DNA of 64,000 nucleotides from Eledone cirrhosa (lineage: Eukaryota). The stretch covers positions 13,035-77,034 of the forward strand of contig CAXHJY010000403.1 of assembly GCA_964016885.1 (NCBI GenBank), given 5' to 3'. Position 1 is the first letter of the stretch. Each line of letters begins with the position of its first letter. A program made the translations under genes and the position numbers. This document shows, in pieces, positions 5,535 through 5,838 of this stretch. The notes below the pieces were generated by a model. The model saw nothing but the letters and a program-made list of their open reading frames with translations. It did not search any database and was not told the DNA's origin.

Positions 5535-5838
5535 AAGTATGCATATTTTGTATATCTAGCGATATACAGTATGTTTACAAATAAACATTTTGAAAGCCTT
5601 CAGCTATGAATTTTGAAACTGATGAGTTCCAGCAGAGAGCAGGGTAAGGAGGCACTGACTTGATAACGACCAGAGTCAGAAACGACGTCGTCGCCAGTTA
5701 GCCACCCTTTGCTTCTGTTGGAATCCGCTAGATGGCGTTACGTCATCAGTTTCTAAATTCATAGCTGAAGGCTGGCTTTCAAAATGTTTATTCGCAAACA
5801 TAGCGTATGTCGCTAGATATACAAAATACGCATACTTA
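5535..5838. repeat. Long imperfect inverted repeat with an HHR at the apex
   Basis: 5535-5626 pairs with 5743-5838; 5627-5645 pairs imperfectly with 5704-5723. Confidence 0.9.
5654..5698 (+). ncRNA. Type I hammerhead, U3-A8 compensated core variant
   Basis: actgac-TTGATAA-cgac caga gtca-GAAAC-gacgtc-GTC-gccagt; palindromic stem III region acgacgtcgt. Confidence 0.7.

Follow-up and report, generated by a model that had tools for sequence, protein, structure and literature searches.

A U3-A8 hammerhead-type motif in a decayed copy of a multi-copy, likely Penelope-dependent repeat from Eledone cirrhosa

The locus and its surroundings

The element described here lies in a 64,000-nt stretch of the Eledone cirrhosa assembly GCA_964016885.1 (contig CAXHJY010000403.1, positions 13,035 to 77,034 of the forward strand). 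We refer to this whole stretch as the window and count all positions within it. The animal genomic DNA of the window abounds in TA, CA, and GA microsatellites and contains pieces of retroelement frames. Beside (TA)n arrays sit two similar 3′ fragments of a LINE-type reverse transcriptase frame (11576-12304 and about 18200-19067, both on the plus strand), and there are two minisatellites, one with 23 copies of a 30-bp unit (3541-4232) and the other with 27 copies of a 33- to 34-bp unit (58213-59103). A repeat near 7050-7170 may resemble one that occurs in octopus genomes.

Positions 5535-5838 fold as a single rod, with a minimum free energy (MFE) of −157.2 kcal/mol versus a shuffle mean of −67.8 (z −18.5; none of 100 shuffles was equally stable), and the extended rod of about 300 nt noted in a first-pass annotation of this DNA is thereby borne out. 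The right arm (5743-5838, plus strand) is the 3′ segment of a repeat unit and is common to far more abundant relatives. The left arm (5534-5625, minus strand) is an inverted partial duplicate of that segment and is specific to this copy. The direct part of the unit is 5′-truncated and occupies 5623-5878 on the plus strand. Its limits are given by loose contig ends before 5623 and behind 5874 or 5878, and by joints that lead from 5874 or 5878 back to 5623 (see below). The last 36-40 bp (5839-5874/5878) are family sequence that runs past the inverted repeat at one end only, in the manner of a Penelope-type tail. No stop-free frame of at least 100 amino acids in the ORF list of the window, which covers the seen part of the unit only, overlaps the element.

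The inverted arm and the direct unit have 3 nt (TGA, 5623-5625) in common: the arm match stops at 5625, and family contigs match from 5623. Before 5623, contigs of the family carry different sequence (28 contigs in run X1 and 30 in run X2, described below). The outer rod is thus not a family trait, the left arm being copy-specific. Mean pair probability within the arms is 0.90-0.94. Their alignment covers 92 positions and contains seven substitutions and a 4-nt indel; the mismatches are four A.C, one U.G, one G.G, and one U.U, so that six of seven break pairing, and none is compensatory. Family majority alleles place these changes on both arms (right arm, 5795, 5803, and 5809; left arm, 5568; both arms, 5614/5754). 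Because the unit folds at only −63.6 kcal/mol without its left arm, the arms provide most of the stability of the rod. The earlier proposal that the 300-nt rod is a functional unit does not hold, given that the left arm belongs to this copy and that the arms drift without compensation. The letters CUGAUGA at the inner end of each arm were considered and rejected as a hammerhead feature, as their order is not that of a hammerhead and the letters differ in relatives.

Anatomy and predicted folding of the hammerhead motif

The motif at 5654-5698 (plus strand) was recognized as a type I hammerhead from its sequence, a descriptor scan, a palindrome test, and covariation of helices I and II in family reads. 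Helices I, II, and III and an NUH site follow one another in type I order, around a core with a Watson-Crick 3-8 pair (U3-A8) and GAAA boxes. From U3 to A9 the core reads UUGAUAA (5660-5666), just as the first-pass annotation had it in place of CUGAUGA, and GAAA follows at 5679-5682. Helix I (5654-5659/5693-5698) has five of six pairs in this copy, with a mismatch at A5658.C5694, and all six with the U-A alleles of the family at 5658/5694; bulges are present beside it. Helix II (5668-5677) is 3 bp long (GAC/GUC around CAGA) and is flanked by an extra C5667 on the 5′ side and an extra A5678 on the 3′ side. Helix III, also of 3 bp, lies inside a perfect 10-nt palindrome (5682-5691), and the GUC site ends at 5692, with cleavage predicted after C5692. 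An extra base 5′ of helix II is normal in Penelope hammerheads according to the available text of PMC4209133. We found no description there of an extra base on the 3′ side, and A5678 before GAAA is outside the usual hammerhead consensus. On the minus strand of the element, the descriptor scan detected no hammerhead.

The full type I descriptor, allowing a C-G or U-A 3-8 pair, yields about one match per shuffled window (0.97; 30 block shuffles) and five rows in the real window, among them a position listed for both strands. With about one match expected by chance the descriptor alone is weak, and it is the family data and the enclosing hairpin that carry the case for a hammerhead. This hairpin (5627-5723/5724, plus strand) has about 17 bp and the hammerhead at its tip, is a family-level feature, and is more stable than expected (z −4.0), with pair probabilities of 0.87-0.97 in its closing stem. 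At 5718, most of the family depth (718 of 971 in X1) carries an allele that converts a G.U of the closing stem to G-C. Rfam gave no hammerhead match at gathering score over the whole window or at E≤10 over 5400-6000, where seven weak matches were returned, none of them a ribozyme. For that reason we class the motif by its anatomy as a hammerhead-type variant, not as a member of an Rfam family.

In the predicted monomer fold of this copy, helices I-III have pair probabilities of no more than 0.04. The forced hammerhead fold has a free energy of −31.9 kcal/mol, 5.6 kcal/mol above the MFE of −37.5. These values reflect a competing pairing of the 5′ strand of helix II with the 3′ half of the palindrome. 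Thus the earlier description of a hammerhead capping the rod stands as far as the motif is concerned, which does lie at the tip, and fails for the fold predicted there, which is not that of a hammerhead. This copy looks decayed, having lost one helix I pair, and is predicted to prefer an inactive fold as a monomer. The motif as such is predicted to cut RNA.

A multi-copy family in public sequencing runs

The run search listed six runs, of which three contain the stretch, all three from one sample. The list includes no RNA run containing it, which has no bearing on whether the family is expressed. Four of the six were compared at 80% likeness, namely, X1 and X2, which are contig sets from a single sample, and X4 and X5, which are RAD reads from two samples in a different study. 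Summed contig depth, which is not to be equated with copy number, is 2.7-3.6 in the unique left flank (5458-5495) versus 830-950 over the hammerhead; it reaches 6,400-12,800 over the left arm. Within X1 alone, depth is 6,400-10,100 on the left arm (which matches the right arm) versus 830-860 on the hammerhead. The element belongs to a multi-copy family, and the 3′ segment of the family is common to more numerous relatives.

In each run, 22-27 contigs have loose ends behind 5874 or 5878, and a variant at 5849 is present in 101-105 contigs, i.e., the family match extends past the right arm. Head-to-tail joints lead from 5878 to 5623 in three contigs of X1 and four of X2, and from 5874 to 5623 in one and two, respectively. 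It should be noted that these four plus six contigs come from two runs of one sample compared at 80% likeness, and that repeats can produce such joints. The unit is read across 5623-5874/5878. Other joints between an inverted arm and a direct unit occur at 5576/5712, 5615/5709, and 5615/5711 (one contig each per run). We read these as other inverted insertions, though misplaced repeats can also give such joints at 80% likeness.

Differences from the focal copy were tabulated for the 40 best supported of 252, among which are majority changes at 5650, 5651, 5658, 5701, 5718, and 5738. In helix I, 5658 T accounts for 476 of 796 depth and 5694 A for 109 of 326. The shares of contig depth are 60% and 54% for the former and 34% and 43% for the latter, so the helix I alleles are mixed, again among the best 40 of 252 differences. 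In minus-mate RAD reads, 5658 T and 5694 A are both present at about 90%-99%. Both RAD samples also contain a diverged locus (about 107 and 128 reads, with one start) that has 15 listed differences within 5652-5751. It has U5658-A5694 in helix I, a double change from C-G to U-A in helix II (5670/5675), and G.U wobbles at 5695 and 5689. Helices I and II therefore covary in a diverged copy of the family.

Between the hairpin and the right arm is a putative CTCF-like box (5725-5740, plus strand), with a single mismatch to the CTCF consensus. With the family majority allele at 5738 (844 of 925 depth in X1) the box is complete, and the loose ends of diverged relatives retain most of it.

Other hammerhead-like motifs

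The first-pass annotation had noted a second, decayed motif at 49443-49484. The motif there (49450-49475, plus strand) is dissimilar to the element (score 14, with 994 of 1000 shuffles scoring as high), and we reject it as a copy of the family. Both core boxes are present, along with a 4-bp helix II that has one extra base on each side, at most four of six helix I pairs at any cleavage site, and no stable fold (z −0.9). Motifs of this class occur in 10 of 100 shuffled windows. If a 3-bp helix II is required, there are two matches in the window (5660 and 49450) versus 0.1 per shuffled window. The motif could be what remains of an unrelated minimal hammerhead and is no evidence for the focal element. 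Bare UUGAUAA..GAAAC box pairs number four in the window versus 0.27 expected. The three outside the element (28307-28328 and 47212-47243 on the minus strand, 49450-49475 on the plus strand) are without full hammerhead helices, are above chance as a set, and are possibly relics of other U3-A8 families.

A better relative is found at 20432-20630 (plus strand), where a second type I motif mounted on a hairpin, its core carrying U3.G8 (20470), lies between (TA)n runs (z −5.6). All six helix I pairs form, and there is an extra base on either side of helix II. This segment and the focal unit have a 25-nt downstream box in common (score 33, BLAST E 0.03), a score attained in none of 1000 mononucleotide shuffles, the maximum in 2000 dinucleotide shuffles being 32. 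The segment probably represents a distant sister family.

C3-G8 motifs are also present. One of type I with a long helix II (20670-20760, minus strand) is on the same strand as a Penelope-like frame and 1.2 kb downstream of it. Minimal motifs of the Penelope type occur on the plus strand at 355, 7524, 8391, 8675, and 8815, with a decayed one near 7895; CTGANGA..GAAAC occurs five times in the window versus 0.19 expected. Around the 7524 motif, an AT-rich segment is duplicated in short inverted and direct stretches (7214-7372, 7635-7698), possibly through another Penelope-type inverted insertion.

Outside this window, a core-pattern scan of metagenomes gave eight loci, which were inspected and folded without yielding a convincing combination of helices I and II; the same scan of viral contigs gave none, and an 18-mer scan of prokaryotes gave seven. 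We rejected all 15 as chance matches, because none aligns outside the searched words.

Origin of the element

The reading that we favor, and consider moderately likely, is that this is a decayed copy of a multi-copy non-coding repeat, likely non-autonomous and Penelope-dependent (of the non-LTR retrozyme type), whose arms likely arose via 5′ inversion. Penelope insertions are described as having an inverted, 5′-truncated copy beside a direct copy, a tail of 30-40 bp at one end, and (TA)n targets (PMC8557442); an identical arrangement is described in PMC3846280, and the tail has been linked to two reverse-transcription start sites (PMC11167929). At the focal locus, an inverted 5′-truncated copy adjoins the direct one (5534-5625 is the inverse of 5743-5838), and the 36- to 40-bp tail is on one side only. 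TA is present at both outer ends, and both flanks are TA-rich microsatellite, within which no target-site duplication longer than 4 bp is readable. Most likely, then, the outer arms are an inverted duplication that accompanied the Penelope-type insertion of this copy, and the striking rod is a by-product of insertion. Depth and contig counts identify a multi-copy repeat with a type I hammerhead, as in retrozymes. The unit would work like a non-LTR retrozyme, and its membership in that class is probable.

Under this reading, tandem source loci would be transcribed on the plus strand, and two hammerheads could pair through the 10-nt palindrome into a long helix III and be cut after GUC, with U3-A8 standing in for C3-G8 in dimeric cleavage. 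Cleavage would release a unit-length RNA that may circularize. A Penelope reverse transcriptase/GIY-YIG protein would then copy the RNA into a TA-rich site, where a template switch at the 3-nt overlap could add the inverted copy of the 3′ 92 bp, after which both arms would drift neutrally.

A candidate for the type of frame that might encode the partner is the long open frame at 21947-23788 (minus strand), a Penelope-like reverse transcriptase with a C-terminal GIY-YIG that is 5′-truncated in (TA)n. Its atlas hits (0.95-0.98) fall in clusters that include RVT_1, HTH_animal, and GIY-YIG members; neither Pfam nor PDB gave a match by sequence. As for a sequence link between the unit and an autonomous partner, none was found; near the Penelope-like frame there is only the 25-nt match at 20573-20596 (E 0.03).

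The main rival is that the element is what remains of the terminal repeat (pseudo-LTR) belonging to an autonomous Penelope-like element and not a small tandem retrozyme, inserted by the same route of inversion and tail. The insertion anatomy would be identical, animal U3-A8 was first seen in Penelope pseudo-LTRs (PMC4209133), and a 3′ segment about 10 times deeper than the hammerhead is what 5′ truncation would be expected to produce. However, short contigs return from 5874/5878 to 5623, and a 6-bp helix I and 3-bp helix III mounted on a long hairpin set the hammerhead apart from the minimal motifs found at 355, 8391, and 8675. We regard this origin as rather unlikely, although it is the strongest of the competing accounts.

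The U3-A8 pair

Neither C3 (5660 T>C) nor G8 (5665 A>G) is found among the best 40 of 252 family differences, and the diverged RAD locus has no change at U3 or A8 among its 15 listed differences. Because C3 and G8 are absent from these while helices I and II covary in the diverged copy, U3-A8 is probably family-wide as judged from the reads, and minority C3 or G8 copies are possible. A CUGAUGA consensus from which copies depart independently at the two positions, the outcome that the first-pass annotation had named as fatal to its view, is not what the best 40 differences contain.

That annotation had also taken U3-A8 as a compensatory change of the 3-8 pair, and here it agrees with the literature, in which the swap with C3-G8 is known (PMC3088659, PMC4209133). 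U3-A8 hammerheads have indeed already been reported, natural ones and those of Schistosoma Penelope elements included. The former are described in PMC3088659, which cites in vitro activity of U3-A8 ribozymes. The latter comprise about 1,300 matches, and the activity reported for minimal motifs is low and dimer-dependent (PMC4209133). The available parts of PMC7151607, PMC6155905, and PMC3884650 give no rate for U3-A8.

Past selection on catalysis may lie behind the U3-A8 pair. We infer this and go no further, because both changes are transitions toward A/T and because hammerhead cleavage is protein-assisted and dispensable for Penelope-like insertion in vitro (PMC11167929). The same facts favor a second rival, in which the family is as described above and drift fixed U3-A8 in a master copy for which the ribozyme had ceased to matter: C>T and G>A are transitions in an AT-rich genome, U3.G8, a core of the unpaired type, is present in the related element at 20470, insertion does not depend on cleavage in vitro, and eight of nine retrozyme dimers tested did not cleave (preprint, bioRxiv 10.64898/2026.07.22.740005). 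Against drift, the core is otherwise intact, the diverged copy has covarying helices I and II, the family majority pairs the closing stem better, and U3-A8 ribozymes are cited as active in vitro (PMC3088659). We consider drift of this kind unlikely.

Other readings of the inverted arms

Long inverted repeats (92 bp) with TA at both outer ends would also suit a MITE of a DNA transposon, with a TA target duplication and a captured hammerhead. Terminal inverted repeats do not bound the copies of this family, however: family sequence continues 36-40 bp beyond the right repeat, differs upstream of 5623, where the left repeat is lacking, and inner junctions vary among contigs, all of which makes a MITE highly improbable. 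Least probable of all, and largely refuted, is the reading of the whole 300-nt rod as a selected RNA structure (an integrated viroid-like or delta-like circular RNA with a hammerhead at its tip), since very high stability (z −18.5) is all that speaks for it, whereas 28-30 family contigs are without the left arm, six of seven arm mismatches break pairing with none compensatory, the minus strand of the element is without a hammerhead, and the core pattern has no viral locus; a rod conserved with compensation and ribozymes on both strands, the marks of rod-like circular RNA replicons, are thus not what is seen.

Relation to known hammerhead repeats

Non-LTR retrozymes, including mussel units of 350-390 bp, were defined by Cervera and De la Pena (2020; PMC7229834), and metazoan ones have been argued to derive from Penelope repeats, with cleavage of one of nine tested dimers (bioRxiv 10.64898/2026.07.22.740005). 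As far as these sources go, the focal family is like metazoan non-LTR retrozymes in being a non-coding repeat of many copies whose type I hammerhead has a weak palindromic helix III, in its signs of head-to-tail units, in having Penelope-like elements alongside, and in that solo monomers are common. It is unlike them in its U3-A8 core, the extra nucleotide on both sides of helix II, and the 5′ inverted arm of this copy. For the focal element, this comparison covers features of the DNA.

The hammerheads of Penelope pseudo-LTRs, among them the U3-A8 variant from Cercyon elements of Schistosoma mansoni (PMC4209133), are similar in the U3-A8 covariation, the extra nucleotide between A9 and G10.1, the G10.1-C11.1 pair, and a palindromic helix III suited to dimers. 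They differ in helix II (7-8 bp there versus 3 bp here) and in that the focal motif has a helix III and a 6-bp helix I on a long hairpin, with no linked ORF seen. Compared with Penelope insertions (PMC8557442, PMC3846280), the inverted 5′-truncated copy beside a direct one, the one-end tail of 30-40 bp, and the TA-rich target are alike, whereas the focal element is without a coding body between its repeats and its target duplication is unreadable. The core covariation is identical to that of the natural hammerheads with U3-A8 that Perreault et al. (2011; PMC3088659) described, from which the focal case differs in sitting in an animal repeat family.

The main text of PMC7229834 contains neither "cephalopod" nor "inverted." Among the literature matches listed, judged by title and the start of the abstract, there is no cephalopod hammerhead family that matches this repeat, nor anything on this family with CTCF sites in Penelope elements. 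The supplementary alignments of PMC4209133 and PMC7229834 may include the focal family.

Implications

The locus adds a natural, apparently family-wide U3-A8 hammerhead, a predicted ribozyme, in a retrozyme-like animal repeat. The marks of Penelope insertion (5′ inversion and one-sided tail) on a non-coding element are independent anatomical support for a recent proposal by which Penelope proteins move animal retrozymes, and a family of hundreds of copies would permit a direct test of selection on the 3-8 pair.

More speculatively, and we would call this doubtful, there could be a superfamily of Penelope-dependent retrozymes, probably of cephalopods, in which a hammerhead on a long hairpin stands next to a CTCF-like box that is conserved and a 3′ segment held in common, with a 1×1 loop at the base of helix II and a 3-8 pair that varies between families (U-A here, U.G at 20470, and C-G in others). 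If so, CTCF-like sites would be dispersed by these elements in their hundreds to thousands, and 5′ inversion would give rise to 90-bp double-stranded RNA hairpins, possible substrates for editing or silencing.
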